This document shows, piece after piece, positions 9,975 through 54,470 of a DNA stretch of 64,000 bases. Location: positions 2,015 through 66,014 of the forward strand of contig MWCM01000005.1 of the NCBI GenBank assembly GCA_002070055.1, written 5' to 3'. The position numbers were made by a program, and so were the translations under genes. Source of the DNA: a bacterium ADurb.Bin212. GTDB lineage: Bacteria > Patescibacteriota > UBA1384 > XYA2-FULL-43-10. Positions within the stretch are counted from its first letter, which is position 1, and each line of letters starts with the position of its first letter. Under the pieces are notes generated by a model. It worked only from the letters and a program-made list of their open reading frames with translations, searched no databases and was not told the DNA's origin.

Positions 9975-11288
9975 ATGATCGAAACACTGCACATCGCGGC
10001 CGCCTTGGCGGCCATCCTGTCGTTTCACGTCGCATTCAGGTGGGAGAAGGCGGGCGGGCTGATTGTTGTGTACATGGCCTGCCTCTTCTTCCTAACCGGA
10101 GTCCCCGACCCCTTGCGGGCGGGGACGTTGGGCATGGCCATCGGGTTGGGCACTGTGCCCTTCCAGATGTGGTTTATGCTCAGATTCCTGGGAGGGAAGG
10201 CGCTTGGCCTGTGGCTCTACATGAGCTCACTGCCGGCGATCTTTCTCCTGCTGTCCTCGTACCTTAGGGGCAGCCACGAACTTATGGTGCTCGCTGTCCC
10301 CTTCGTTTGGAGCATCATCGAAGTGGGAAGGAGCGAGTGTGGCAGGTTGCGCTACAGCTGGCTCATACCGGCTCATGCGCTTTCCGCTAGGCCGTGGATC
10401 AAGCTCCTCGGAGCAGGTGTCTACGGTTTCAGCTTCCTCGTCATGGCAGCCCTTGCGCTCTGCGCGGTGCTGCCGGCCTACCTCTGGCCGGTCGTCGTTG
10501 GGGCAGCCCTTGGCGCCTTGATCGTTCGGCAGAGCCCCTTCTGGACGCATAAGCACCTTCAGGTGGCCGGCTTCCAGATTGAGGCAGGCGTGGACGGCGG
10601 CACGGGCCTGCGTTTTGCAGGATACGACGAAATCCTGCGCCAACTCCACCGCTGCCTCCACCGCCACCCCAACGCCGAACTGGTAGTGGCACCCGAGTAC
10701 GCGCTACCAGACCAACCCGAGGCAATGCTTCTGGCATGGTGCCGAAAGTTCGGCAAGTGGCTGCTTATCGGCGGCCGGGAACACCTTGACGACGATGGCG
10801 GGTTCAGAAACACCGCCTATCTCGTCTCCCCCCTCGGAGAGGTATTCCGGCAGGGCAAAATGGTGCCCATACCCACGGCACCGGACGGTCTGCCCGCCAC
10901 CGAGCAGAAGCCGCTTCGTAACTCCTTGGGCACTCTTGGCATCTGCATCTGCTACGACCTAAGCTTCGCCTCGGTCGTAGCACCGCTCGTTGAGAGTGGT
11001 GTGCAGGCGCTGGTGGTGCCATCAATGGACCTTGCGGAGTGGGGTCCGCACGAGCACCGGCTTCACGAGAAGTGGGCGAGGATTATGTCCTACGTCTACT
11101 CCTTGTCGGTGTTCCGTGTGGTCTCCTCCGGCCAGTGCCAACTGGTTGATTGCGGAGATGTCCTTGCGGTCAGCCAGGACGGCACCATCGGCGACAACTT
11201 GCCCATGCACTTGGGCGAAGTGCCTACCGACTGGAGGATCCTCCGCCACCTCCTTCCTCCGCTCGTGCGCGCGCCGAGTGAGGAGTAA
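9975..11288 (+). CDS. lnt: apolipoprotein N-acyltransferase (Lnt)-like: polytopic N-terminal domain plus C-terminal CN-hydrolase domain; high-GC
   Basis: About 6 TM helices, then a nitrilase-superfamily domain. Candidate catalytic residues are Glu in LVVAPEYALP, Lys in FRQGKMVPIP and Cys in LGICICYDLSF. Visibly GC-rich relative to the flanks. Confidence 0.7.
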   Translation: MIETLHIAAALAAILSFHVAFRWEKAGGLIVVYMACLFFLTGVPDPLRAGTLGMAIGLGTVPFQMWFMLRFLGGKALGLWLYMSSLPAIFLLLSSYLRGSHELMVLAVPFVWSIIEVGRSECGRLRYSWLIPAHALSARPWIKLLGAGVYGFSFLVMAALALCAVLPAYLWPVVVGAALGALIVRQSPFWTHKHLQVAGFQIEAGVDGGTGLRFAGYDEILRQLHRCLHRHPNAELVVAPEYALPDQPEAMLLAWCRKFGKWLLIGGREHLDDDGGFRNTAYLVSPLGEVFRQGKMVPIPTAPDGLPATEQKPLRNSLGTLGICICYDLSFASVVAPLVESGVQALVVPSMDLAEWGPHEHRLHEKWARIMSYVYSLSVFRVVSSGQCQLVDCGDVLAVSQDGTIGDNLPMHLGEVPTDWRILRHLLPPLVRAPSEE

Positions 11289-14828: not shown

Positions 14829-16163
14829 TTATTTGCCATATGGGCTCATTTGCCTTAATTTTTTTATGATGCCGGGAAGTATTTCTATTACACGATCGAT
14901 TTCCTCCTCCGTATTATGTTTCCCTAAACTAAAACGAATCGAGCCGTGGGACCACTCTGGTGATACGCCTATAGCTGTTAAAACATGGCTTGGTTCCAGC
15001 GATCCCGATGTACAAGCGCTCCCACTAGATGCCGCTATGCCCTCTTTATCAAGCATTAATAGAATTGATTCCCCTTCGGCATTCTTAAAACTTACATTAA
15101 CATTATTTGGGGATCTTCTTTTGAGGCAACCGTTGACTCTGGTATCAGGAATCTTCATTAAACCTTTAATTAATTTATCTCTGAGTTGCTTTAATCGTTT
15201 AGTTTCATCGTATAAAATCAATTCCGGCAAAAGTTTTCCAGATTCCTCGATTTTGCTATCAGCTTTGGCTTTATGCATCTTAACCAGTGCAGCACTCAAA
15301 CCGGCGATGCCGGCCACATTCTCTGTTCCGGCACGCATTTTATTCTCTTGGTTGCCACCGACTATCTGCCTGATTATTGGCGTGCCATTTTTAACGAACA
15401 GCGCGCCCACGCCTTTTGGTCCGTAAAATTTGTGAGCAGAGAAAGTAAGCAAATCAACACCCAAATATCTGACACCGGTTTGGAAATATTCCATTGCTTG
15501 CACCGCATCGGTGTGGAAATAAATTTGCTTTGCAAATTTATTTCCCGAATTATGAATAAAGAATGAAGAATTATGTTTATTCGGCTCAGTAACATTAGAC
15601 TTTTTCCCATTATTCATTATTCTTAATTCATTATTCTTCGCTATCATCTGTGCGATTTGCTTAATTGGTTGCACTGTGCCTATCTCGTTATTAACATACA
15701 TAATGCTCACCAAAACCGTGTTGTCTTTAATCTCCGCGTCTATATCCTCAACTCGTATCACACCGTTTTTCTGCGGAGTTACATAGCTAGCCTCTATCAG
15801 GCCCTGTTTCTCTAACTCCTTCACAGTATCCAAAACAGAGTGGTGTTCTACGGCACTTGTTATAACATGAGGCGTCGCTCTATTATTTTTCTGATCTGTG
15901 TTACTATGATATGCGTCAATCAAACCTTTTATAGCTAAGTTATTGCTTTCGGAGCCACCAGAGGTGAAAATAACCTCTTCGGGCTGGCAATTGAGACTAA
16001 AGGCTACAGTGTCCCTTGCTTCGTTTAAGATATTTCTAGCTCCCAAACCAAAGCTATGTGCAGATGATGCATTGCCCCAAAATTCCTTCTGAACCTTGTT
16101 CATAAGCAGAGCTACCTCCGGATCAGGAGGAGTTGTCGCCGAATGATCTAAATATATCTTCAT
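14829..16163 (-). CDS. iscS: cysteine desulfurase (group I IscS/NifS type) carrying an in-frame mini-repeat insertion
   Basis: IYLDHSATTP, PLP-lysine motif SAHKFYGPKGVGALFV, and active-site loop SSGSACTSGSLEPSHVL. Start taken at MKIYLDH (16163). Confidence 0.9.
   Translation of the reverse strand: MKIYLDHSATTPPDPEVALLMNKVQKEFWGNASSAHSFGLGARNILNEARDTVAFSLNCQPEEVIFTSGGSESNNLAIKGLIDAYHSNTDQKNNRATPHVITSAVEHHSVLDTVKELEKQGLIEASYVTPQKNGVIRVEDIDAEIKDNTVLVSIMYVNNEIGTVQPIKQIAQMIAKNNELRIMNNGKKSNVTEPNKHNSSFFIHNSGNKFAKQIYFHTDAVQAMEYFQTGVRYLGVDLLTFSAHKFYGPKGVGALFVKNGTPIIRQIVGGNQENKMRAGTENVAGIAGLSAALVKMHKAKADSKIEESGKLLPELILYDETKRLKQLRDKLIKGLMKIPDTRVNGCLKRRSPNNVNVSFKNAEGESILLMLDKEGIAASSGSACTSGSLEPSHVLTAIGVSPEWSHGSIRFSLGKHNTEEEIDRVIEILPGIIKKLRQMSPYGK
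15547..15575. repeat. inverted, diverged partner of family 1 repeat (GAATTATGAATAAAGAATGAAGAATTATG) inside the cysteine desulfurase gene
   Basis: Imperfect reverse-complement of the 15606-15637 copy, about 30 nt away. Together they form a ~90-nt MITE-like unit encoding SSFFIHNSGNK...NNELRIMNNG. Confidence 0.5.
15606..15637. repeat. AT-rich mini-repeat family 1 copy, in frame inside the cysteine desulfurase gene
   Basis: Identical core to 6892-6921. Encodes NNELRIMNNGKK. A partner in inverted orientation lies at 15547-15575. Confidence 0.7.
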
Positions 16164-24332: not shown

Positions 24333-25319
24333 TTACTCTTCGGAATAATATTTTTCAATCCTGATACTTTCCAACTTTCCAGTGCCCAGGGAGGCACCCA
24401 ATGCCTTAAAAGCGGCAGTTGAAAGATCAATTATCACTCCAGAATCTGAGTGGCTTATACCACCGCCTTTTATGGTCACTGTTACTCTTTTACCATTATT
24501 CTGGTTAACTACCACTACTTTCGTGCCGCGTGGCAAAGAGTTGTGAGCCGCAATCATCTCATTTGTGGCAACATACCACGTAGCTTTGCCCGTTCCATAC
24601 ACAATTACTTTGCTTCCGATTCTAACCACTTCATCAACACTTTCTGTAACAATTTTTGTAGAAATGTATGATTTTGACACCTCTTCTCCATCTACCCTTG
24701 TTACCAAATACGAAAGCTCTTTAACCCCGGCCAAACCTTTTTGTTCAACGACCTTATTCCCCTTCTCCATTGTTGGGTCTTCTTTCTTAACAACTTTATA
24801 TTTAATCTCTTCGCTTTCAACAATAACTGTTTTGGCGACTCTGCTGATTTTTATCTGCATGTTGTCCTCAATTTTGGAATCAAGAGGCAAAGATGTTTTA
24901 TCCTCCATGCCGAGAGCAATGTCTTTTTCCTTAAAAAGCTCTTCAATAGTTGATGACCAGCTGTGAAGCAACTGATATTTTTTACCATCGTATAGATTTA
25001 CCCTCGGCGCACGCTTGATAGTTATCTTGCCACCCATCTCTAAATATAAATCAGGGAAAACAGATATTTTGTCCTCGGGGAAAGAGATTATTTGCAGGTC
25101 GTTTAAAATTTCATTCAAGTTGCCGCCGTTACTGAATCCGTTCGATTCGATGATCTGACCATTCGGTCTTACGTCAACAACAAAATATGCTCTCTCCGGC
25201 AAGAAATCTGCGCGAGATTCGTAGTGATTAATATTCTTTGAATATGCTGTTGCCGAAAAAAATAAAACCGGCACAGCGACTAATGTTATGAAAAGACGCG
25301 AAATGTTCATACTCTGCAT
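24333..25319 (-). CDS. secreted cell-wall protein with G5 domain and C-terminal RlpA/3D-like double-psi beta-barrel
   Basis: Signal peptide MNISRLFITLVAVPVLFFSATAYS. Mid-region G5-like. C-terminal GKATWYVATNEMIAAHNSLPRGTKVVVVNQNNGKRVTVTIKGGGI...IIDLSTAAFKALG matches the RlpA-like DPBB pattern (ASWYG...TA.GE...TAAH.TLP.GT.V.V.N..NG.S..V..NDRGP...IDLS.AA...LG). Confidence 0.6.
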   Translation of the reverse strand: MQSMNISRLFITLVAVPVLFFSATAYSKNINHYESRADFLPERAYFVVDVRPNGQIIESNGFSNGGNLNEILNDLQIISFPEDKISVFPDLYLEMGGKITIKRAPRVNLYDGKKYQLLHSWSSTIEELFKEKDIALGMEDKTSLPLDSKIEDNMQIKISRVAKTVIVESEEIKYKVVKKEDPTMEKGNKVVEQKGLAGVKELSYLVTRVDGEEVSKSYISTKIVTESVDEVVRIGSKVIVYGTGKATWYVATNEMIAAHNSLPRGTKVVVVNQNNGKRVTVTIKGGGISHSDSGVIIDLSTAAFKALGASLGTGKLESIRIEKYYSEE

Positions 25320-25396
25320 ACATAATAACAGAAAAATATCCCTTTGCTTAATTGGCACAATTTAGATACAATATAGTTGTGCAGTAATGGAGGGAG

Positions 25397-41902: not shown

Positions 41903-42709
41903 CTAAACGAACAAGAGGGCGACCAACACCAAAGCCATCACTACATCTACTCTGCTCTTGATCCGGCTGGCCTCTTTGGCCGACATACTACCACGCACAG
42001 CTAGCTGAACCACAGTCGGCACCCAAAGCAGGGCCACTAACCTCACCCAACCCAAGGCTTGCAGAAGAACCAACCATGTGGCAAGGCAAGCGACCGCCAG
42101 ACTCAGTGCCGCCACCCTTTTGGCCCCCGTTTCACCCACAGCCTGGATCCATGTCCATTTGTGGCCAATGTCGTGGGGGTGGTCTTCGAAGTCCTTTAGG
42201 ATCTCGCGGCCGTGGATCACAGATGCTACCGCCACAAACAGCAACAGCACTCCAGAATCTTCATTACCTTGACCCAGAGTTACCAAGAGCACCGTTAGAC
42301 TGGAAGCCCCGGCAACCAGTAGGTTCGGCAGTACCGGAACAGTTAACAGCTCAGAGTAGAGAAGACCGGTGACGATGCAAAGGAATATCAGAGCCCCTGA
42401 TTGCCAGCCCAGATCCAACCAGACTGCCATCGCCAACAAGCCGGAGAGTAGCCACAGAGTTGTGGCATACAGCCGGTATTGCCGGGGGTTTTGGGCAGCA
42501 TGGCGCTTGCCCATCCTTGCATCGTGCTGCCGATCACGCAGGTCATTCTGGACCATGGTGGCACACAGCACTACAAACACCGCCACAGCCGGCAAGACAG
42601 AGGCTGAGAGATCGCCGCCGGCATATTTTACGCTAACAATCACGAGCAGCACGGCAAAGAGGTTAATCCTCCACCGTGTCGCCTCGATATAAGGCCGGAT
42701 ACTCTTCAC
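41903..42709 (-). CDS. UbiA-family membrane prenyltransferase (high-GC island)
   Basis: Polytopic. First Asp-rich motif NDLRDRQHDAR (NDxxDxxxD) and second DFEDHPHD. GTG start preceded by GAGGTGA. Visibly GC-rich. Confidence 0.65.
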   Translation of the reverse strand: MKSIRPYIEATRWRINLFAVLLVIVSVKYAGGDLSASVLPAVAVFVVLCATMVQNDLRDRQHDARMGKRHAAQNPRQYRLYATTLWLLSGLLAMAVWLDLGWQSGALIFLCIVTGLLYSELLTVPVLPNLLVAGASSLTVLLVTLGQGNEDSGVLLLFVAVASVIHGREILKDFEDHPHDIGHKWTWIQAVGETGAKRVAALSLAVACLATWLVLLQALGWVRLVALLWVPTVVQLAVRGSMSAKEASRIKSRVDVVMALVLVALLFV

Positions 42710-45134: not shown

Positions 45135-45971
45135 ATGCCAGTTCAAAGACATTATAAACCCAGGAAAAGAATAAAGCAAAGAAAGCGATTTTTTTGGGTT
45201 TTCTTCTTTATATTTATCATCATATTTATATACTCTGTGTTCCGCGTCACAGTCTGGATTATCGATTCAATGAATATTTCTAAATTACTTACTTCAATCA
45301 ACCAAAACACGCAAATTAGCGAAGTAGACGGTCGACAGGGACAACAATTCAATCCGCCGCAAGATAAGTTCGACCCTTATTGGGATTATATTAACACTAA
45401 TTTGCTTGATGTTAATTTGGACGAACTAACCAAGATTAATCAACAAACAAAGGGGTGGGTTCAGATAAAGGGAACGAATATAAATTATCCCTTTGTTCAG
45501 GCAGAGGATAACAATTATTACCTTAACCACTCTTTTAGCAAAAAGTATAATCAAGCCGGCTGGATATTTTTAGATTATAGAAATAACATTGATAGCTTGG
45601 GAGAAAATACAATATTGTACGGACATGGCAGAGTCGGCAACACCATGTTTGGCACTCTTAAAAATATCGTAAAAAGTAGCTGGTACTCAAACAAAGAAAA
45701 TCACTTGATCAGAGTTTCCAGCCATAAACACAACTCTCTGTGGCAAGTATTTAGTGTTTATCAGATAGATACAACCAATGATTATCTTCAAACATCCTTT
45801 TCTAAGGAAAAAGATTTCTCCGAATTTCTCGACATGATTCGCTCCAGATCCGAACTTAATTTTAACACCAGCACAAATTACAAAGACAAGATATTAACTC
45901 TATCAACCTGTTTGAATAGTTCAAAAAAAACAGTCATGCACGCCAAGCTAATAAATATTCAATATAAGTAA
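45135..45971 (+). CDS. sortase-family transpeptidase (membrane-anchored)
   Basis: N-terminal TM FFWVFFFIFIIIFIYSVF. Catalytic-Cys motif ILTLSTC resembling the sortase TLxTC, and an upstream His in ILYGHGRVGN. A TTG at 45114 is an alternative start. Confidence 0.6.
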   Translation: MPVQRHYKPRKRIKQRKRFFWVFFFIFIIIFIYSVFRVTVWIIDSMNISKLLTSINQNTQISEVDGRQGQQFNPPQDKFDPYWDYINTNLLDVNLDELTKINQQTKGWVQIKGTNINYPFVQAEDNNYYLNHSFSKKYNQAGWIFLDYRNNIDSLGENTILYGHGRVGNTMFGTLKNIVKSSWYSNKENHLIRVSSHKHNSLWQVFSVYQIDTTNDYLQTSFSKEKDFSEFLDMIRSRSELNFNTSTNYKDKILTLSTCLNSSKKTVMHAKLINIQYK

Positions 45972-45993: not shown

Positions 45994-46025
45994 AGCGCCC
46001 CCTATGCGTTGGGGGCGCTTTTGTT
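45994..46025 (+). terminator. intrinsic terminator after the sortase gene
   Basis: AGCGCCCCC-TATGCGTT-GGGGGCGCT hairpin followed by TTTGTT. Confidence 0.55.
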
Positions 46026-46319
46026 CTTTGGGATATCATCCCCTTTCTTCGGCCGCTTGCACCACGGCCAGTGATACTGCCCGCAATACGGGCAGGGTTG
46101 CTTGCGCCGGTTGGGGTAACCTACCGGACGCGGGGGCACTACGGGTCCAACGGGCCCGATCGGCATAGTATCCAACCCCTTTCATTTTCAACGGTTCTGA
46201 ATTGGCAACTTTTTATAACATTTTTTGACGATATTCGCAACATTTTTTGCTTTACAAATTTTGCAAAAAGTTATAGTATTACTTATCGTCGCAACATCGA
46301 CTCCAAGCGAGGTAAAGCC

Positions 46320-47036
46320 ATGCCCGAATTGACTATCGCCACATTCCTGACACTGCCGTTCACGATGGGCACAAGAGTGGCTATCTCCCAAGGGTGGCTA
46401 TACTCCATGGACGAGGTAGTCATTCACCCTGGCATTACCCACCACAACGGGGTGGACTTCGCCTGCCCATGGGGTACACGCGTACTGGTGCCGGCCGACG
46501 GTGTGGCAGTAGCCAGCTACCACACCTACTACATGGGTGATTTCCATGGTCGTCTGATCGGCTATGGGCTAGGGTTGTTTGTGCAGATCTGGCACCCCGA
46601 GGCCCAACTCTTCACCTCTTACGCACACCTATCCAAGGCGTCTAAGGAGATTCCCTACATCTCACCGGTCCGCCAGGGCGACAGTTGGCAACCGGCGGCA
46701 GCCATCTATGTGCCGCTGGAGGTGTTTCTGGCGCAAGGTGTTGAGGTGAAACGGGGTGACTATCTTGGCGAAGTTGGCCGCACAGGCCTACTGCTCCACG
46801 ACGAGACACCCAGCAACCCCCCAGCAACCAAGGCGACCGACCCCACTTGGGATCCTGCAGGTGATCACTTGCACTGGGAGTGCTACAGACGCACACTCGA
46901 CGGCCTCCGCAAGGACCCTGAGGCGCGCTGCGACCCCTTCGGTGTCTATGGCCTCCGCGAGGCCTACAACATCAACAAAGCTAGCGGTCTGTTGCTGGCC
47001 GGCCCCAAGGGCAGACCCCTATGGGCCAACGAGTGA
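46320..47036 (+). CDS. M23-family (LytM-like) metallopeptidase (high-GC island)
   Basis: HPGITHHNGVDFACPWGTRVLVPADGVAVASY (HxxxD ... GT.V.A...G.V) and GDHLHWE (HxH). RBS GAGGT before the ATG at 46320. The longer upstream ORF extension is non-coding GC-rich sequence. Confidence 0.7.
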   Translation: MPELTIATFLTLPFTMGTRVAISQGWLYSMDEVVIHPGITHHNGVDFACPWGTRVLVPADGVAVASYHTYYMGDFHGRLIGYGLGLFVQIWHPEAQLFTSYAHLSKASKEIPYISPVRQGDSWQPAAAIYVPLEVFLAQGVEVKRGDYLGEVGRTGLLLHDETPSNPPATKATDPTWDPAGDHLHWECYRRTLDGLRKDPEARCDPFGVYGLREAYNINKASGLLLAGPKGRPLWANE

Positions 47037-47130
47037 CAGTCGCGAAATGTCGAACCAGCGGCCCCGATCAATCGGGGCCGCGCCGCATTTTAGCTTTACT
47101 TTCAAGACTAATAAGGATATATTTTTAGGT

Positions 47131-47610
47131 ATGGGCAATCGCAAGAAGCTTTCAATTTGTTTTTTATGTACTGACAATGTCGGACGCAGCATAGTAGCAG
47201 AGTATTGTCTGCGGAATTATTTAACAAAGAACAATATTAAAGAGATCAACGTATCCTCTGCAGGAACTGATGCAGCTAGCGACACCTCCAGCTTTTCTAT
47301 GGCTCATGTAGATGAGATGAAAAAAATGGGCATTAATGCTTCGAAGCACGCAAGAATTCAAATGAATCAAAATATTGTGAACAATACCGACCTGATCATC
47401 TGCATGGATAGCTGGCACCAGACTTGGCTTAAGGAGCATTATGGCATAGATGCACCTTTGTTTAATGAGATATATAATAAAGAATCTAGTTCCATCCGCG
47501 TCTCTGACCCGGAACAGAAAACTAGCCTAGACAATCGGATGATAGAAATCACACACTATATCAATAACGCGATTCCACAGCTGGTCAATAATATTAATAA
47601 GTTTAGGTAA
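47131..47610 (+). CDS. low-molecular-weight protein-tyrosine phosphatase / ArsC-like
   Basis: P-loop CFLCTDNVGRSIVAE (CX5R(S)) at the N-terminus. Low-GC, native-like. The 5' part of ORF 46756..47610 is an out-of-frame overlap with the M23 gene and is rejected. Confidence 0.75.
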   Translation: MGNRKKLSICFLCTDNVGRSIVAEYCLRNYLTKNNIKEINVSSAGTDAASDTSSFSMAHVDEMKKMGINASKHARIQMNQNIVNNTDLIICMDSWHQTWLKEHYGIDAPLFNEIYNKESSSIRVSDPEQKTSLDNRMIEITHYINNAIPQLVNNINKFR

Positions 47611-47622
47611 TTCGGGATTCTT

Positions 47623-48723
47623 ATGTCATTACAAATAGGAATTGTTGGCCTTCCAAATGTAGGTAAATCGACGTTGTTTAACGCCCTTATTCGTGGTGCC
47701 AAAGCAGAGGCAGCCAATTATCCTTTTTGCACCATTGAGCCGAACGTAGGCGTGGTTGAGGTGCCAGATGAGCGACTAAAACCTCTTTCAGAGGTATCAA
47801 AATCTAAAAAAATCGTGTCGGCTGTGGTTGAATTTGTTGATATCGCAGGATTAGTGCGCGGAGCAAATAAAGGAGAGGGACTTGGTAATCAGTTTTTGGC
47901 ACACATTCGTGAATGTGATGCGATTGCAATGGTGGTGCGCTTTTTTGAAGATGAGAATATCGTTCATGTAGAAGGTAAAATTAACCCCGAAGAAGATATT
48001 AAAACCATCGAAATTGAGCTGCAACTTGCCGATATTTCTACAGTAGAGAAACGCCTTTTTGGTGTAGAGAAAGAGATGAAAACCGGTTCCAAAGAATCAG
48101 CTTTAGTCCACAAGGCGCTACAAAAGATTAAAGATATTTTGCATCAAGGCAAGAATGCTCGTGAGGCAGATTTGAACGAAGAGGAGCTAAAAGAGGTTAA
48201 AGGCCTTAGCCTACTGACCATGAAACCAGTGCTCTATATCGCTAATTGCTCAGAAGAGCAATTAACTAATAACCAAGATACAATAACCAATAATCAAAAC
48301 AATTTAACAATTGAACAATCTAACAATTTCATCCCAATTAGTGCCAAAGTTGAAGAGGAATTAAACAGTCTCAAAGAGGAAGAAAAGGCTGAATACCTCG
48401 ACTCACTAGGCCTAAAGGAATCAGGGCTTAATCGTTTAATAAAAGAAGCATATAAAACACTTGGATTAATTACCTACTTCACTAGCGGAGAACCAGAAAC
48501 CAGAGCATGGACAATAAAAAAAGGCTTCACCGCCCCGCAAGCCGCAGGTGTAATTCACACCGATTTCGAGCGTGGCTTTATAGCCGCTGATGTGGTTGGT
48601 TGGTTAGACCTTGTAAACCAAGGCAGCTGGACCTCTGCCCGCGCCAAGGGCCTAGTAAGAACCGAGGGCAAAAACTACATCTTTAAGGACGGCGACGTAA
48701 CCTTATTTAAATTTAATGTTTAG
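47623..48723 (+). CDS. ychF: ribosome-binding ATPase YchF (Obg-family), with Asn/Gln-rich insertion
   Basis: IGIVGLPNVGKSTLFNAL, NYPFCTIEPNVGVV, and a C-terminal TGS domain. Insertion NNQDTITNNQNNLTIEQSNNF. Confidence 0.9.
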   Translation: MSLQIGIVGLPNVGKSTLFNALIRGAKAEAANYPFCTIEPNVGVVEVPDERLKPLSEVSKSKKIVSAVVEFVDIAGLVRGANKGEGLGNQFLAHIRECDAIAMVVRFFEDENIVHVEGKINPEEDIKTIEIELQLADISTVEKRLFGVEKEMKTGSKESALVHKALQKIKDILHQGKNAREADLNEEELKEVKGLSLLTMKPVLYIANCSEEQLTNNQDTITNNQNNLTIEQSNNFIPISAKVEEELNSLKEEEKAEYLDSLGLKESGLNRLIKEAYKTLGLITYFTSGEPETRAWTIKKGFTAPQAAGVIHTDFERGFIAADVVGWLDLVNQGSWTSARAKGLVRTEGKNYIFKDGDVTLFKFNV

Positions 48724-48836: not shown

Positions 48837-50693
48837 GTGGCTGAGTTGTTTGAGTTTCTTGCAGTTGCGCTGTCGTACATATGGGGGTCGCTCCCCTTTG
48901 GGTACACGGTGGGGAAGCTCGCCGTAGGGAAGGGCTTCGACATCAGAAACCATGGCTCCGAAAGCATCGGTTTCACCAATGTCTGGCGAGTACTGGGCAT
49001 GAAGGTAGCAATACCAGTGCTCATCCTCGACCTGCTCAAGGGATACCTGCCTGTGGCGATCGCCATGCACACGCTTGGTGTTACAGCCGCCTGGCTCTGT
49101 CTGATCGCGGTAATGATCGGGCATGCCAAGTCGCTCTACTTCCGACTCACCGAAGGTCATTTCAGCGGCGGTAAGTCGGCGGCTTCTGCGATGGGTGGCA
49201 TCGTTGCTCTTCAACCAGTGCTCGCCGGATGGGTGTTCCTGTTCTTCCTGGCAGTACTGCTTGTGAGCAGAACAATGTCGGTATCTTCGATGCTTGCGAG
49301 TTTCTGTGCAGTCTGGCTATCCTACCACTACGAACTGGGACACGGATGGCACACTCTGTTCTGGGTTGTTGCAGTGCTGATTATGTACACGCACCGCCGC
49401 AACCTAGGGCGCTTGGCTCATGGCACCGAGAACAAGATGTTCGAGTGGTCGGACATGCGGTGGCCATGGCAGAAAAAGCCAACGACTAAAGAGCAACCCG
49501 AGATCCTGGCAGGGTTCGTGATTCACGCCATGGACTGGAGAGATCTCCTGCAATCCATCTTCTCATGGTGGATAGGCTTTCTCGGGATGTGGGAACGCAC
49601 GAGACCCATCGCAACGTGGATATTGGCTCACGTACCGGTCATCGAGAACGCCGAGATCAGAAACATCCGACTCAAAGATGGCCGAAGGGTTAGAGTCCTG
49701 GTGTTGGCGATTCCTTGGGTGTCCAGCATGATCAAGCAGGTCCGGTATGCCAACGAGATTGACGAAAGAGAGGAAAAGATCCCGTCGGGATCGGAAGGAG
49801 CCGAAGCCAGAGATGAGGTGAAGAGAGCCAAACAAGCTCCGGAGTATAGGAGGTCGAAGTGGTTCCGTGATAGGCTCTGGCAAAGGCTTCGAAGCACAGC
49901 GGTGCAGACCAGACGTAGGGGTTGTTCGGTGTTAGGTCTTGGCGCTCTACTTTCGACCGAGTTCAACGGAGGTGCAGACCTACAGAAGTGGTGCAACGCG
50001 AGAGGCCTTGACCTGACCGTAGACAACGGAGCGGCCTACACAGCCGTTTCCACGGTACAGGCGGTGATTAAAGAGACACCCATGCCCCTCGACCAAGCTA
50101 AGGTCAAGGTAGTAGGTGCCAGCGGCTTCATCGGTCGCATTACCGCCAAGTACATGGAGAAACTAGCCGCTCAAGTGACCGTAATAGGCAGGGACGAGGC
50201 CAAGTTAACCGGGTTCAGTCAATCCACGGCAATCTCAACCGCGCTGGAAGACGCTTACGACGGCGACGTTGTAGTGCTTCTTACCAGCGCGCCCGGACAG
50301 GTGGTGAACCTCGAGAACTGCACCAAGTTCAAGCCTGGCGCTACCTTCATGGACGGCGCTAGGCCTGTTGACTTCGACGAGCAAATACTCAAAGAACACC
50401 CCGAACTCAACTTCAAGCTGGTGCGCTGTGGGGTCATCAAGTTTCCACAAGAAGAAGGCAGAGACGTTCTGTGTGGTGTGGATTTCCACTTCGATGGCTA
50501 CTACCCAGCTTGCGTCGCCCAGTGTGTAATGGTGGCGGCCGGAGGAGAAGAGGGAAGATCGAACGCCACCAACGGAGCGTCAATCAGGCCAGCCAAGTAT
50601 GAGTACTTCGCAAATAGTGCCGAGGCATGTGGCTTGGAGGTCATAACCTCGCGAAGATCGGAGGGAGATGTATTCGAGGGCAATTACAACTAG
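48837..50693 (+). CDS. plsY: glycerol-3-phosphate acyltransferase PlsY fused to a ~400-aa C-terminal extension with Rossmann-like NAD(P)-binding motif (high-GC island)
   Basis: N-terminal ~200 aa: LSYIWGSLPFGYTVGKLAVGKGFDIRNHGSESIGFTNVWRVLG, 5 TM helices, typical PlsY. The same frame continues without a stop for 618 aa and includes VKVVGASGFIGRITAKYM...VTVIGRD. GTG start. Visibly GC-rich. Confidence 0.6.
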   Translation: MAELFEFLAVALSYIWGSLPFGYTVGKLAVGKGFDIRNHGSESIGFTNVWRVLGMKVAIPVLILDLLKGYLPVAIAMHTLGVTAAWLCLIAVMIGHAKSLYFRLTEGHFSGGKSAASAMGGIVALQPVLAGWVFLFFLAVLLVSRTMSVSSMLASFCAVWLSYHYELGHGWHTLFWVVAVLIMYTHRRNLGRLAHGTENKMFEWSDMRWPWQKKPTTKEQPEILAGFVIHAMDWRDLLQSIFSWWIGFLGMWERTRPIATWILAHVPVIENAEIRNIRLKDGRRVRVLVLAIPWVSSMIKQVRYANEIDEREEKIPSGSEGAEARDEVKRAKQAPEYRRSKWFRDRLWQRLRSTAVQTRRRGCSVLGLGALLSTEFNGGADLQKWCNARGLDLTVDNGAAYTAVSTVQAVIKETPMPLDQAKVKVVGASGFIGRITAKYMEKLAAQVTVIGRDEAKLTGFSQSTAISTALEDAYDGDVVVLLTSAPGQVVNLENCTKFKPGATFMDGARPVDFDEQILKEHPELNFKLVRCGVIKFPQEEGRDVLCGVDFHFDGYYPACVAQCVMVAAGGEEGRSNATNGASIRPAKYEYFANSAEACGLEVITSRRSEGDVFEGNYN

Positions 50694-50797: not shown

Positions 50798-51841
50798 ATG
50801 AAAAAAATAGCAATTATGGGTGCAGGTGGATTCGGTACGGCCTTGGCTTTTGTTCTATCCCGTAACAGTCAAAGTGTAAGCCTTTGGGATCAAGACGAAG
50901 CATTAATAGCCAAATGGAGAAAGCAAAATTTTAGCGACAGATACCCATATCTCAAAAAACATAAGTTTAATAAGAACATTAAATTGATCTCAGGTAGTGT
51001 GAACGCTGACGACCACGACTATGTAATTGTTTCAACCTCAACCAGCGGTATCACTGGCGCACTAAATAGTCTAAATACCAACGGCAAAACTCCGATAGTT
51101 TTGATCCAAAAGGGTATGCTGGATGGACTGATCTCCCCTCACGATTTAGCAAAAAAGATTTTCCCAAAAGAGACCATTATGCAATTCACCGGGGCCGGTT
51201 TTGCCAAGGATTTGGTGGGCAGATCTCCAGCAGGAATGATTGTGTTGCATGAAACTAAAGATACATCCACCGCCAGTGATTTCGCCTCCGTGTTTAAGGG
51301 TAGCAACATCTGGCCTACACTCTGTTCGGATCTCTTTGGGGTCAACATCCATAACTCTCTTCGCACCATTGCTTCTTTTGAACAAGGCTTTGTATATGGA
51401 TATTTTGAACACAAGTTTCGCAAAAAACCTCCTGTTTCTACAATCGCGATTACCTTTTCTGCTATCAACCAAGAAACTAAATTAATTGCCAGAAATCTTG
51501 GAGCGACAAAAGAAATTCACGATATAGAATCGAAAGTCCACAGAATTTTAGAAGCCGATTTAATGCTTTGCCAGTCCGACTCCAGCCGAAACTTCGCTTT
51601 AGGTCATTTTGTAGGCAAAGGCTATTGTTTAGATGAAGCAAAGAAAAAGGTAACAGAGGGAGTGGCAGAGTGCCTAAACAATATCAGCTCGATATTCGCC
51701 GCCATTAGCGAAAAGGTAATTAAGGACACAATTGAGGACAGTTTCCCATATTTACTGGCTGCAAAAAATTTAACAGAAAAAGGAGAGATAGAAAGCCAGA
51801 TGAAAAGAATATTGTCCCACCACGAAAACTATATAGCTTAG
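50798..51841 (+). CDS. gpsA: NAD(P)H-dependent glycerol-3-phosphate dehydrogenase GpsA
   Basis: KIAIMGAGGFGTALAFVL N-terminal dinucleotide-binding/GpsA signature. Low-GC. Canonical position downstream of plsY. Confidence 0.85.
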   Translation: MKKIAIMGAGGFGTALAFVLSRNSQSVSLWDQDEALIAKWRKQNFSDRYPYLKKHKFNKNIKLISGSVNADDHDYVIVSTSTSGITGALNSLNTNGKTPIVLIQKGMLDGLISPHDLAKKIFPKETIMQFTGAGFAKDLVGRSPAGMIVLHETKDTSTASDFASVFKGSNIWPTLCSDLFGVNIHNSLRTIASFEQGFVYGYFEHKFRKKPPVSTIAITFSAINQETKLIARNLGATKEIHDIESKVHRILEADLMLCQSDSSRNFALGHFVGKGYCLDEAKKKVTEGVAECLNNISSIFAAISEKVIKDTIEDSFPYLLAAKNLTEKGEIESQMKRILSHHENYIA

Positions 51842-51875: not shown

Positions 51876-51904
51876 TTGACTTAAATTGTATTTTGTGCTA
51901 TAAT
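51876..51904 (+). promoter_or_regulatory. near-consensus sigma70 promoter TTGACT-N17-TATAAT upstream of the muramidase-amidase gene
   Basis: TTGACT 51876-51881, a 17-nt spacer, TATAAT 51899-51904. AAGGAGG RBS at 51985-51991, 8 nt before the ATG at 52000. Confidence 0.5.
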
Positions 51905-51999
51905 TGCTTAATTCTCTAAAGCAGAGATATATTTTTTGTTGCATAAAAATACTCCCTGCTTCAGCAGGACAAGCATCACAATCGAAGGAGGCGAGGCGC

Positions 52000-54009
52000 A
52001 TGAAAGCGCTCTCCTACGCCGTATTTGTTGTTCGGTTGTTGTGGTACATGGTGTGGGGAGGGGCTTACGCCATATCCTCCTTCATCATTGTGCCATTCTT
52101 CATCGCGCTGGCACGGCTACTAGTTGCCGTGCTAAAGCAGTGCTGGGGCAACCTGGCCTGCTTCTACAAGAGGTGGGTCAAGAGGAGTGGCCTGGGCCGT
52201 GTGCTTCTTTGGCACGGTGCCGCCTTCGTCGTAATCATGGTTGTCGTCGGCTCATGGGGAGACGCACCGCGCACGCCCCAAGCCGGAAGCAACCAGGCAA
52301 AGGAGCAGGTGGCACCCGCTACCACTCCCGAGCCCATGGACAAAAAGCCCGAGGAGAAGCCTGCGCCTGCAGAGGTAAAGGATACTTCTCCGAAGGGGGC
52401 GCTAGGCAAGGGCGCATGGATCATCGAGCTGGACGAGGCCGAACTTGGCCAAGTCAAACAGATCAAAGATCCGGAGGCTCGCCAGAGTGCGCAGGTAAAG
52501 GCGGTTGTGGCTAAGGCCAAGAAAAACGGCCTGGGGCATATCATCGTCAAGACTGCCCACTTCGGTAAGCCGTATGGCAGCTGCCCGCCCGAGATGGCGC
52601 GTGAACTTGGCGAAGCCTGCCGCAAGGCTGGCATCCGCTGCTTCGGCTACGGCCGAATTCTAGCGGACGATGCTGATGCCGAAGCGGAGATGGCCAAGCG
52701 AGCCATGCGCCCTGCCAGAGATGGCGGGCTCGGGCTCGATGGCTACGTCTTTGACGCCGAAGGAGAGGTTAAGGGCAAAGATAAGAATCTGCGCCTAATC
52801 CTCGCTGATGTCAAAAGCTGGCTTAAGGCTGCGGCGCCTAATAAGCGCCTTGGCTACTCCAGCTTCGGCATCCCCTCCTACCACAGAGGACTCGCTTGGG
52901 ACACACTCAACGAGTTCTGTCACTACGCCATGCCTCAGTTGTATTGGCGCAGTTGGCAGAGTACTCAGAAGTGGTCCTTGGATGAGTCCCTTGGCAAGTC
53001 GCTCGCCTCTTGGCGCGACTGCCCTCTGCCGGTGGTGCCCACCGTGCAGAGCTACTCAGGAAAGCTTGGCGGCGTAGCCCGTGTCGAACCAGCCAAGATG
53101 AAGAAGTTCCTGGCCGGCCTCGACACAAGCTCCGGCTTCAACTCCTTCCGCTGGGACTATACGGGCCCAGAGCAGTGGCAGGTAATCCGCGACTTTAAGT
53201 GCGGGCAACCTAGTTACAAGCTCAAAGTTCCGGCGGAAGGCAAGCAGACTAGTGCCGCCTCGACCACCATGCCCAAGATGCCGCTTGAGCCAACTGGCAA
53301 AGGCGACCTCACCGGCATGGTTGTGGTCATCGACCCCGGCCACGGTGGCACCGACCCCGGCATGGGTTGGAAGGTGGAATGGAAGAAGAGCGGCAAGGCC
53401 CACAAACTCAAAGCGTGGGAAGCCGCCGTCACCTACCCCACCTCCTGGCAACTGGCCGCCACCCTACGATCCCGAGGTGCTTACGTCTACCTCACCGCCT
53501 GGGACCCGATCATGGCCCAGGTGCCGACGGGCGCTCGGGATCTACCGTTGCCGAGGAAAGCAACCTTCACGGACGACTGCAAGAAAGTCCGCGGAGGCAT
53601 GTTTTCGCAGCGCTTTGCCACAGTTTCGACTGCGGTTAAGCGCTTCGACGCCTCCGGAAAGAAACTGGGCTGGCGCCATGTTGCCTTCGTCAGCATCCAT
53701 GTGGACTCGCTCGGTGGAAATGTGAGCGGTGCCCACGCTGTTTGCTGGCCGGGAGATGTTGACCTTGGCGAACCGATCGCAGCTGAACTTGCAAAGATCG
53801 GCGTTGCCACACCCGGCAGACCACTCTGGGAGAAGACGAAGAGGATGGGCATCATTGCCCCAAGTAACGTTCCCCTTCGTCTCCGACTGGTGGTCGAGAT
53901 GGGAGTCCCGGCCAACGATGGCGGTGACTCATGGCGACTGCGATCACAAAAGCATCGACAGAAAATCATCGATGCCATCGCCAACGGCCTCGCCGCCGTT
54001 AACGACTAG
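52000..54009 (+). CDS. membrane-anchored bifunctional peptidoglycan hydrolase: GH25-like muramidase domain plus C-terminal N-acetylmuramoyl-L-alanine amidase (Amidase_3) (high-GC island)
   Basis: N-terminal TM/signal anchor, then a Pro/Ala/Lys linker. GH25-like blocks LGHIIVKTAHFGKPYG, GIRCFGYG, LDGYVFDAEGE and MPQLYWRSWQ, compared with the GH25 pattern FVIIKATEG...G.YHF...LWLD.E...PLWIA.Y. Amidase_3 signature MVVVIDPGHGGTDPGM. Confidence 0.6.
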   Translation: MKALSYAVFVVRLLWYMVWGGAYAISSFIIVPFFIALARLLVAVLKQCWGNLACFYKRWVKRSGLGRVLLWHGAAFVVIMVVVGSWGDAPRTPQAGSNQAKEQVAPATTPEPMDKKPEEKPAPAEVKDTSPKGALGKGAWIIELDEAELGQVKQIKDPEARQSAQVKAVVAKAKKNGLGHIIVKTAHFGKPYGSCPPEMARELGEACRKAGIRCFGYGRILADDADAEAEMAKRAMRPARDGGLGLDGYVFDAEGEVKGKDKNLRLILADVKSWLKAAAPNKRLGYSSFGIPSYHRGLAWDTLNEFCHYAMPQLYWRSWQSTQKWSLDESLGKSLASWRDCPLPVVPTVQSYSGKLGGVARVEPAKMKKFLAGLDTSSGFNSFRWDYTGPEQWQVIRDFKCGQPSYKLKVPAEGKQTSAASTTMPKMPLEPTGKGDLTGMVVVIDPGHGGTDPGMGWKVEWKKSGKAHKLKAWEAAVTYPTSWQLAATLRSRGAYVYLTAWDPIMAQVPTGARDLPLPRKATFTDDCKKVRGGMFSQRFATVSTAVKRFDASGKKLGWRHVAFVSIHVDSLGGNVSGAHAVCWPGDVDLGEPIAAELAKIGVATPGRPLWEKTKRMGIIAPSNVPLRLRLVVEMGVPANDGGDSWRLRSQKHRQKIIDAIANGLAAVND

Positions 54010-54112
54010 GCCGATTCCGCGGAGCCTAGCAACAAAAATCCGCGTTTTCAGAGCCGCCCTCGCAAGGGGCGGCTCTTAGTATTTAAAACCAGACAGAACA
54101 ACAAGAAAAATG

Positions 54113-54141
54113 TTGACAAACACACTCTCTTCTGTTAGTAT
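54113..54141 (+). promoter_or_regulatory. sigma70-like promoter (TTGACA-N17-TAGTAT) for the rpsF-ssb-rpsR operon
   Basis: Exact -35 TTGACA. The -10 TAGTAT matches 4 of 6 positions. Preceded by the hairpin AGAGCCGCCC-TCGCAAG-GGGCGGCTCT, which terminates the upstream gene. Confidence 0.4.
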
Positions 54142-54470
54142 AACTATGCTTATCGGCAGCAGATAAGGCGCCGTGAACTATCACACGGAGGGAAACTGGG
54201 AGGTTTCTCGGTAGTTCACGGCGTTTGCCCGACCCCTCAGCCCATATTGCATAATACTTATTGCATTTTGCTGTGTTCGATCTTCAATACTCAATGTTCG
54301 AGATTCGAAAATTGCTATTGGAAATTGAAATTCCCCCGCTTCTTTAGCTGGGGGAACTCGCGGCCGACCTAAATTGGCCAACATTATGCGAGTGCCAAAT
54401 TATAAAACGTATTAATTTACCACTGAAAATCATTTAACGGAATACATGGAAATTCTGTGTTTTCTGTGAA
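54142..54470 (+). promoter_or_regulatory. long structured 5' leader of rpsF (candidate S6:S18 autoregulatory element)
   Basis: Hairpins CTTATC-GGCAGCA-GATAAG, GCCGTGAACTA...TAGTTCACGGC (about 60 nt with internal GGAGGGAAACTGGGAGG), CCCCCGC...GCTGGGGG, and ACTCGC-GGCC...GGCC-GCGAGT. A ~360-nt untranslated region is unusual in this compact genome. Confidence 0.35.

Follow-up and report, generated by a model that had tools for sequence, protein, structure and literature searches.

A GC-rich accessory island encoding a leaderless M23-family peptidase in a Berkelbacteria-like bacterium

Layout of the island and its two genes

In the 64-kb stretch of DNA analysed here (the window), a gene for an M23 zinc metallopeptidase lies on a GC-rich island of about 1.09 kb (Table 1). 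Both neighbours named in the preliminary description, the sortase and LMW-PTP genes, were confirmed. The GroEL protein of the window is 75–76% identical to GroELs labelled Patescibacteria group or Candidatus Berkelbacteria, and the host is therefore taken to be a Berkelbacteria-like CPR bacterium. The GC content of the island is 0.57–0.63, compared with about 0.35–0.42 in the flanks; the rise starts from about 0.34. Relative to the empty site of the related L075, the left flank runs up to ...AAAAGGCGCC and the right flank picks up again at ATTTTAGCTTTACTTT, a sequence common to the window and L075; these breakpoints are also the GC boundaries. The hairpin at the left edge is terminator-like on both strands, for the sortase gene on the plus strand and for a small ORF on the minus strand. 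A T-run directly follows the 11-bp hairpin at the right edge.

Table 1. Features of the island and its borders (positions in the window)
Feature	Position	Strand	Remarks
Sortase gene	45135-45971		Neighbour of the island; confirmed
Bidirectional terminator hairpin	45994-46019	both	AGCGCCCCC-N8-GGGGGCGCT; inverted repeat I6; left island edge
GC-rich accessory island	~46000-47085		~1.09 kb; bordered by sortase B and the LMW-PTP/ychF promoter; from GC content and comparison with L075
Mini-protein ORF	46002-46166	-	Unannotated; 54 aa; ATG 46166; conserved in L023/L024
25-nt block	46204-46228	-	100% conserved with L023 (alignment A2); minus strand reads TGTTATAAA; extended -10
Sigma-70-like promoter of the M23 gene	46251-46279	+	TTTACA-17-TAGTAT; pattern match in the window
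Shine-Dalgarno sequence of the M23 gene	46309-46313	+	GAGG(T); 7-nt spacer to ATG; read from the sequence
M23 zinc metallopeptidase ORF	46320-47036	+	238 aa; leaderless; intact, 238 codons
HxxxD motif	46443-46457	+	H42-N-G-V-D46
Intervening catalytic His	46626-46628	+	H103 in YAHLS
HxH motif	46866-46874	+	H183-L-H185
Terminator hairpin	47058-47081	+	GCGGCCCCGAT-CA-ATCGGGGCCGC, then GCCGCATTTT; perfect 11-bp inverted repeat I11; right island edge
LMW-PTP gene	47131-47610		Neighbour of the island; confirmed

The coordinates of the M23 reading frame are the same in the public gene call on JAKJEL010000001.1 (GCA_022705445.1), and 'Peptidase family M23' is the name given to an identical protein of the MAG bacterium ADurb.Bin212. 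A GTG at 46071 opens a longer in-frame version, the extra part of which is AT-rich promoter sequence. Two observations favour the start at ATG 46320: a GAGG lies at 46309-46312, and the orthologue in L023, which is 76% identical, agrees with it at the N-terminus. The promoter pattern upstream of this start has a single match in the 64-kb window, against 0.03 expected by chance, and its hexamers are largely kept in the alignment with L023.

The product of the minus-strand ORF begins MPIGPVGPVVPPRPVGYPNRRKQPCPYCGQYHWPWCKRPKK, is rich in proline and lysine/arginine, and contains a C-x2-C-x3-H-x3-C motif, CPYCGQYHWPWC. It gave no match in Pfam, NCBIfam or PHROG. Nevertheless, several observations indicate a coding sequence. 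The 54-aa protein is 76% identical between the window and L023/L024, and 19 of the 32 nucleotide differences fall at third codon positions. The frame has a pN/pS of 0.28, compared with 1.2–2.2 in four other frames; the sixth frame has a value of 0.36 but contains stop codons. A ribosome-binding site precedes the gene in both the window and L023. A structured RNA at 46020-46170 was considered and rejected, since nothing relevant was found in Rfam and the minus strand is protein-coding by codon position.

The spacer between the two divergent genes is AT-rich and holds the 25-nt conserved block, a probable promoter for the mini-protein gene. L023 has one more GC-rich ORF, of 111 aa and with no recognized family, 7 nt upstream of the M23 gene. 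This ORF is absent from the window.

Comparison of the M23 gene with its syntenic orthologue in L023 (234 codons, 76% amino acid identity) gave a dS of 0.93 and a dN/dS of 0.17. The sortases of the two genomes are 72% identical, with a dS of 1.6 and a dN/dS of 0.10. Neither copy of the M23 gene carries a frameshift or stop codon at a dS of about 0.9 between the lineages. This substitution pattern indicates that the M23 gene is under purifying selection and is functional rather than a relic.

Family, active site and relatives of the peptidase

The gene product matches Pfam Peptidase_M23 (PF01551) with a score of 44.3 bits, above the gathering cutoff of 28.7 (E 2e-11), in agreement with the family originally proposed. 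The match spans profile positions 2–66 of 96, no more than two-thirds of the model, as the domain is broken up by inserts. The HxxxD and HxH motifs described earlier are both present and are accompanied by the intervening catalytic histidine (Table 1). H42, D46, H103, H183 and H185 are invariant in an alignment of 23 close homologues (23/23), and each is kept in 141–151 of 154 subfamily representatives. A PDB search with the profile of the 23 homologues matched zoocin A, ShyA, NMB0315 and Csd-type M23 enzymes; the HxxxD, YAHLS and HLH blocks align with those of zoocin A and ShyA. The LytM-type β-sheet fold of family M23 was also found. The product is an M23 (LytM-family) peptidase with all active-site residues intact.

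M23 peptidases are textbook enzymes, with LytM, lysostaphin, ShyA and MepM as the established basis of the zinc mechanism. By analogy with LytM numbering, H42, D46 and H185 would be the zinc ligands responsible for water activation, while H103 and H183 would assist catalysis. The reaction is predicted to be the hydrolysis of one peptide bond in peptidoglycan stems or cross-bridges, and characterized M23 enzymes suggest that the peptide stems or cross-links of peptidoglycan are the most likely substrate. Two inserts are common to the subfamily (query residues ~105–140 and ~157–180), and both are confidently modelled. These inserts lie around the groove and probably shape it. The wall attacked by the predicted enzyme could be the bacterium's own, in remodelling, or that of a partner.

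A word-indexed search of 5.8 billion proteins identified only 24 clusters related to the window protein. When 1.84 billion representatives were scanned in full with HMMER, 458 matches were obtained at E ≤ 1e-3, of which 170 reached ≤ 1e-10 and 69 reached ≤ 1e-30; almost all are full-length (220–340 aa). The members P0002–P0023 show full-length homology to the window protein with 51–76% identity, and the uncharacterized metagenomic subfamily comprises these and about 170 clusters at 50% identity. An N-terminal P-F-L-x-L-P-F segment is conserved across it, together with further invariant positions (P13, G25, Y28, E32, W177-D178, R191 and D205-P206). Among the 185,579 GTDB species representatives, close relatives with 53% identity occur only in a Candidatus Berkelbacteria MAG and on one other contig, which is short and probably mis-binned. 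On sequence criteria, the window protein belongs to a small, divergent, uncharacterized M23 subfamily that is known from metagenomes only, of Berkelbacteria-like Patescibacteria. A search of the literature found no experimental study of any member of this subfamily.

The preliminary description had looked toward actinobacterial LytM homologues, and this link found no support. The Rhodoglobus and Salinibacterium proteins among the GTDB representatives share only about 28% identity with part of the domain. The close relatives are metagenomic proteins of Patescibacteria/Berkelbacteria type, and an actinobacterial donor is unsupported.

LytM and lysostaphin are Staphylococcus glycyl-glycine endopeptidases, and that specificity is not implied for the window protein. 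Structure-based identity to these enzymes (MEROPS M23B; PDB 1qwy, 2b0p and 4lxc) is 17–25%. The window protein is about 100 residues longer, owing to the two inserts and a C-terminal tail, and is without the signal peptide, pro-region and SH3b targeting domain; neither an SH3b nor a LysM domain was found in the Pfam search. As a single domain at 17–25% identity, it falls outside the glycyl-glycine endopeptidases in the narrow sense.

Of the proteins with solved structures, the Gram-negative DD-endopeptidases ShyA, MepM, NMB0315 and Csd3 match best, both by sequence and in Foldseek. For ShyA, the profile match has an E of 7e-4 and the Foldseek match an E of 2.5e-6, and the catalytic motifs align. 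The NCBIfam ShyA and MepM models scored weakly, at about 21 bits against equivalog cutoffs of 341–700. These enzymes are periplasmic multi-domain proteins of 350–440 aa with autoinhibitory N-terminal domains, whereas the window protein is a single leaderless domain of 238 aa. The catalytic domain of Streptococcus zoocin A (PDB 5kvp) is the top PDB match for the subfamily profile (E 4.9e-4). Its HxxxD and YAHLS blocks align with the window protein, although the likeness is limited to the core. Zoocin A differs in being a secreted protein with its own domain for target recognition.

A signal-peptide prediction from the start at 46320 had been suggested, and the N-terminus proved to contain no signal peptide, lipobox or transmembrane segment. 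There is no cysteine before C49, residue 3 is a glutamate, and no basic residue precedes R19. The maximum 12-residue hydropathy is 1.57, compared with 2.0–3.4 in exported homologues. Most close homologues in the 23-sequence alignment open with an L-x-G-C lipobox or another hydrophobic leader, as lipoproteins or signal-peptide proteins, whereas the window protein and its 76%-identical sister in L023 are leaderless. The Sec or lipoprotein signal of extracytoplasmic autolysins and lipoprotein M23 endopeptidases is thus missing.

A hidden upstream signal peptide was rejected because the in-frame upstream region is AT-rich promoter sequence without a hydrophobic segment; the presence of a different ORF after the same region in L023 also argues against it. 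One nominally leaderless homologue, P0006, does have a plausible in-frame hydrophobic start upstream. In about half of the wider subfamily representatives, the start lies a few residues ahead of PFLxLPF and no hydrophobic leader is present; for this reason the leaderless forms look like a genuine variant rather than mis-called starts.

Distribution and base composition of the island

In L075 the sortase gene is followed after 165 nt by ychF, and both the island and the LMW-PTP gene are missing. The L075 sortase gene is 95.5% identical at the nucleotide level to that of the island-bearing L023, and uvrD, Flg_new_2 and YchF are collinear with the window. The GC-rich UbiA gene, placed between uvrD and Flg_new_2 in the window, is also absent from L075. 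In L078 and L079, whose GroELs are 93–94% identical, ychF adjoins rpsF, and a 5.4-kb segment is absent that carries gpsA and two GC-rich genes, the PlsY-fusion and Amidase_3. The conspecific L077 is 98.3% identical over 19.6 kb, with all islands present. Its gpsA and ychF genes are 18.5% and 6% divergent from those of the window, compared with less than 1% for the other genes, which shows local recombination. The island junctions are the same in the independent assemblies L001, L002 and L077. An assembly chimera was rejected on the basis of the L077 contig and of identical junctions in NCBI, ADurb.Bin212 and two Logan assemblies.

The M23 island is accessory. It is present or absent at a conserved site, with L075 empty, a pattern that fits either gain or loss. 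The window and L023 carry the island at one and the same site, although their sortases are only 72% identical. As the site is shared, a single acquisition before the split of the two, followed by loss in L075, is the simplest history, and the island may be old, with a deletion in L075, and not a recent gain. This distribution may also have arisen from independent gains or because homologous recombination spread the island. No integrase, transposase or target-site duplication was found beside the island, and its flanking repeats are imperfect only (75–77%), at chance level.

The separate GC-rich island recognized in the preliminary description is evident in the composition of the gene itself, with 60% GC and a GC3 of 0.70 in a window of 42.7% GC. 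The distribution of GC3 in the window is bimodal. About 40 ORFs have values of 0.30–0.45, while the outliers are the Lnt-like acyltransferase (0.77), the UbiA prenyltransferase (0.64), the M23 peptidase, the PlsY and reductase-like fusion (0.66) and Amidase_3 (0.69), all of them envelope-building or envelope-cutting enzymes. The amino acid composition is shifted as well: the GARP/FYMINK ratio is 1.65 for the M23 protein and 1.24–1.78 across the five outlier ORFs, compared with 0.27–0.97 for native genes. Such a shift points to an origin in a GC-rich genome rather than to codon-level selection. The M23 island lies at a dinucleotide distance (δ*) of 134 from native genes, which differ by 85 among themselves. 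With a donor common to all islands in mind, these signatures were also compared between islands: the Lnt, PlsY and amidase genes resemble one another (distances of 55–94), and the M23 island differs from them (124–151), the latter values based on 1.1 kb only.

The M23 gene of L023 is equally GC-rich, with GC3 values of 0.71 and 0.70 in two lineages separated by a dS of 0.9–1.6. At 4-fold sites, the window and L023 show proportions of.48 SS,.18 SW,.16 WS and.18 WW. A two-state treatment of these sites is compatible with decay from an ancestral GC4 of about 0.83–0.92. The argument that a GC3 of 0.70 cannot outlast the divergence of the window and L023 was dropped as evidence on either side of the import question, since this fit allows amelioration.

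The nearest non-sister homologues have 51–58% identity and come from genomes of 39–50% GC; beyond the sister lineage, the searches gave no donor-like homologue with more than 58% identity. At most of about 14 loci of relatives, the M23 gene clearly exceeds the local median in GC3; in L003 the two values are about the same. A donor of high GC of some kind is required. Taken together, the foreign composition and the presence/absence polymorphism argue that the M23 island is an accessory import from a GC-rich donor.

Composition also bears on the excess of wall hydrolases that had been pointed out in the window. The protein with G5 and DPBB domains was confirmed at 24333-25358. In the protein at 51904-54009, described before as a GH25-amidase, the Amidase_3 domain was found and the GH25 domain was not. 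The apparent excess is in part due to imports, as the M23 and amidase genes are GC-rich and missing at the same positions in relatives.

Origin and role of the cassette

The reading that we favour, and hold to be likely, is that a catalytically competent M23 enzyme resides on a horizontally acquired 1.09-kb cassette, which came from a GC-rich donor into a Berkelbacteria-like lineage and is variably present there. Together with the divergent mini-protein gene, the M23 gene would form a self-contained cassette with its own promoters and terminators. Given the extracytoplasmic substrate, the missing export signal is a point against this explanation.

Horizontal transfer is common in Patescibacteria and takes place mostly within the phylum (PMC12455944). 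As with the genomic islands described for that phylum, the cassette is a small accessory insert whose composition departs from that of the streamlined CPR genome around it, and the relatives of its M23 protein are mostly in other Patescibacteria. Unlike those islands, it carries a single enzyme, lies about 20 GC points above the host and is devoid of mobility genes; the 64 kb analysed contain at least five such single-gene islands, the cassette included.

An offensive or lytic role is unlikely. The leaderless enzyme would then be freed by lysis, in vesicles or by dedicated export, or would be the remnant of a lysis module from a phage or mobile element. Endolysins and secreted effectors typically lack a leader, and the share of leaderless subfamily representatives, about half, fits such a role, as does the accessory, variably present gene. 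Patescibacteria are largely episymbionts and cross-domain parasitism is known, a lifestyle with which a lysin would agree. The 111-aa ORF located 7 nt upstream in L023 could encode a partner or immunity protein, but it is missing from the window. Moreover, no holin, phage, secretion-system or toxin-immunity genes are found nearby, nor were phage genes found in the flanks of the M23 gene.

The database searches likewise argue against a lysin. A phage or plasmid origin was rejected, as IMG/VR, INPHARED and PLSDB (tblastn), PHROGs and BFVD folds gave generic M23-core similarity only. The best matches in IMG/VR, INPHARED and BFVD were confined to the M23 core, with 16–39% identity. No close relative was found in the IMG/VR viral contigs, INPHARED phages or PLSDB plasmids, in which the best matches are partial and have 25–39% identity, and PHROG matches were weak (E 5e-5 or worse). 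With no cell-wall-targeting domain, and judged by its neighbourhood and homologues, the window protein does not resemble a phage endolysin or virion-associated lysin.

A broader proposal is that the single-gene GC-rich islands, at least five in number, are an envelope toolkit that a Patescibacteria episymbiont imported bit by bit from a partner or host organism of high GC. The leaderless M23 enzyme, perhaps with the CCHC mini-protein, would then cut the wall of the partner and not that of the symbiont. We consider this decidedly unlikely.

It is very unlikely that high GC is intrinsic to the M23 family, through selection or biased conversion, with an ancestral island that was deleted in L075 and others. 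The GC3 of the M23 gene is at or above the local median at all of the ~14 loci, including those in genomes of 39–48% GC, and the shared site and equal GC3 of the two diverged lineages would also be expected. However, an amino acid shift is not expected from selection at synonymous sites. Five functionally unrelated ORFs share the anomaly, four of which are missing at syntenic sites in relatives, and the pattern of S and W at 4-fold sites is compatible with ongoing decay from the high ancestral GC4.

It is still more improbable that the gene is a decaying remnant of a lipoprotein gene, deprived of its signal sequence on transfer and no longer of any use. The L-x-G-C lipoboxes of most close homologues, with none here, and the dispensability of the gene in relatives would fit. 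Nevertheless, the dN/dS of 0.17 over 234 codons and the intact frames in two lineages are those of a constrained gene. The catalytic and subfamily-specific invariant residues are all kept, the promoter and ribosome-binding site are conserved, and leaderless members are common across the subfamily.

LytM factors are defined by loss of metal ligands. A non-catalytic regulator of the EnvC, NlpD or DipM type, activating an amidase such as the Amidase_3 encoded 5 kb downstream, is barely credible here, given that all five catalytic residues are intact and conserved family-wide, that no coiled-coil, LysM, FtsEX-binding or other accessory domain is present, and that the amidase is missing next to other family members.

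The favoured reading of an imported M23 enzyme is largely confirmatory, since both the M23 family and gene import into Patescibacteria were known before. The analysis delineates an uncharacterized M23 subfamily with lipoprotein and leaderless forms, which could be a source of lytic enzymes. In this lineage, envelope enzymes, and not the usual defence or mobile genes, make up the variably present part of foreign composition, an observation of relevance to the way in which ultra-small symbionts construct and reshape their walls.

Two further items came out of the analysis, namely the unannotated conserved mini-protein gene and a nearby unclassified conserved structured RNA. The latter was met at the rpsF promoter, whose -10 element had been likened to that of the M23 gene. 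TAGTAT is indeed shared, as TTGACA-17-TAGTAT at 54113-54141, but the promoter heads a non-coding stretch, 366 nt upstream of rpsF, rather than rpsF itself. The structured block begins at this same distance from rpsF, measures about 270–295 nt and has no Rfam match. It folds with a z of -5.2 and is about 96% identical to L078, while its flanks are unalignable.

Genes beside the M23 gene

The class B sortase upstream of the M23 peptidase gene has its best named homologues outside its own clade at 51-60% identity, and these are labelled Bacilli or Mollicutes, not Patescibacteria. The small Pro/Lys/Arg-rich ORF between the two genes matched no known family. It is kept in L023, the island-bearing contig of a sister lineage, and is under purifying selection. 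L023 carries an extra GC-rich ORF beside its M23 gene, a counterpart of which is absent from the window. On the downstream side, the LMW-PTP gene is also missing from L075, the contig of a relative without the island, despite the native, AT-rich composition of the window copy. In L075 the same promoter region as that of the window LMW-PTP gene (ATTTTAGCTTTACTTT...) stands directly before ychF.

Features of the window and of L023
Feature	Position	Strand	Remark
Lnt-like acyltransferase	9975-11288		GC-rich single-gene island
UbiA prenyltransferase	41903-42709		GC-rich single-gene island
Sortase, class B	45135-45971	+	
Unannotated ORF, 54 aa	46002-46166	-	contains CPYCGQYHWPWC (C-x2-C-x3-H-x3-C motif)
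LMW-PTP	47131-47610	+	
ychF	47623-48723		
PlsY fusion	48837-50693	+	GC-rich single-gene island
gpsA	50798-51841		
Amidase_3 protein	51904-54009		GC-rich single-gene island
Non-coding block, ~295 nt	54108-54405	+	conserved in L078
Extra ORF, 111 aa, family not known	L023 1457-1792	+	7 nt upstream of the L023 M23 gene

Further islands and recombination patches

Besides the M23 island, the window has four islands of this kind (GC3 0.64-0.77), and all four encode envelope enzymes. The UbiA gene is missing from the syntenic site in L075, and the relatives L078 and L079 both lack the PlsY-fusion and amidase genes. The PlsY part of the fusion is a glycerol-3-phosphate acyltransferase scoring above the TIGR00023 cutoff; it is joined to a Rossmann-type domain of about 400 aa with weak similarity to long-chain acyl-ACP reductase. 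Such a fusion is unusual for a lineage thought to be without fatty-acid synthesis.

Compared with the conspecific contig L077, gpsA differs at 18.5% and ychF at 6% of nucleotides, while the assemblies are otherwise >99% identical. The two genes mark patches exchanged with a divergent relative by homologous recombination.

The non-coding block upstream of rpsF

The block shares ~96% identity with L078 (GroEL 93% identical), with unalignable flanks on both sides, and its predicted fold has z = -5.2. A search of Rfam returned no match at E<=1. The block may represent an as yet unclassified structured RNA, or else an unusually long rpsF leader. A strong promoter, TTGACA-17-TAGTAT, marks its start. 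In L078, three copies of the palindrome CACGATAAATCGTG and one degenerate copy lie at ~15280-15570, spaced ~55 nt apart; ychF is on one side of them and the conserved RNA block on the other.
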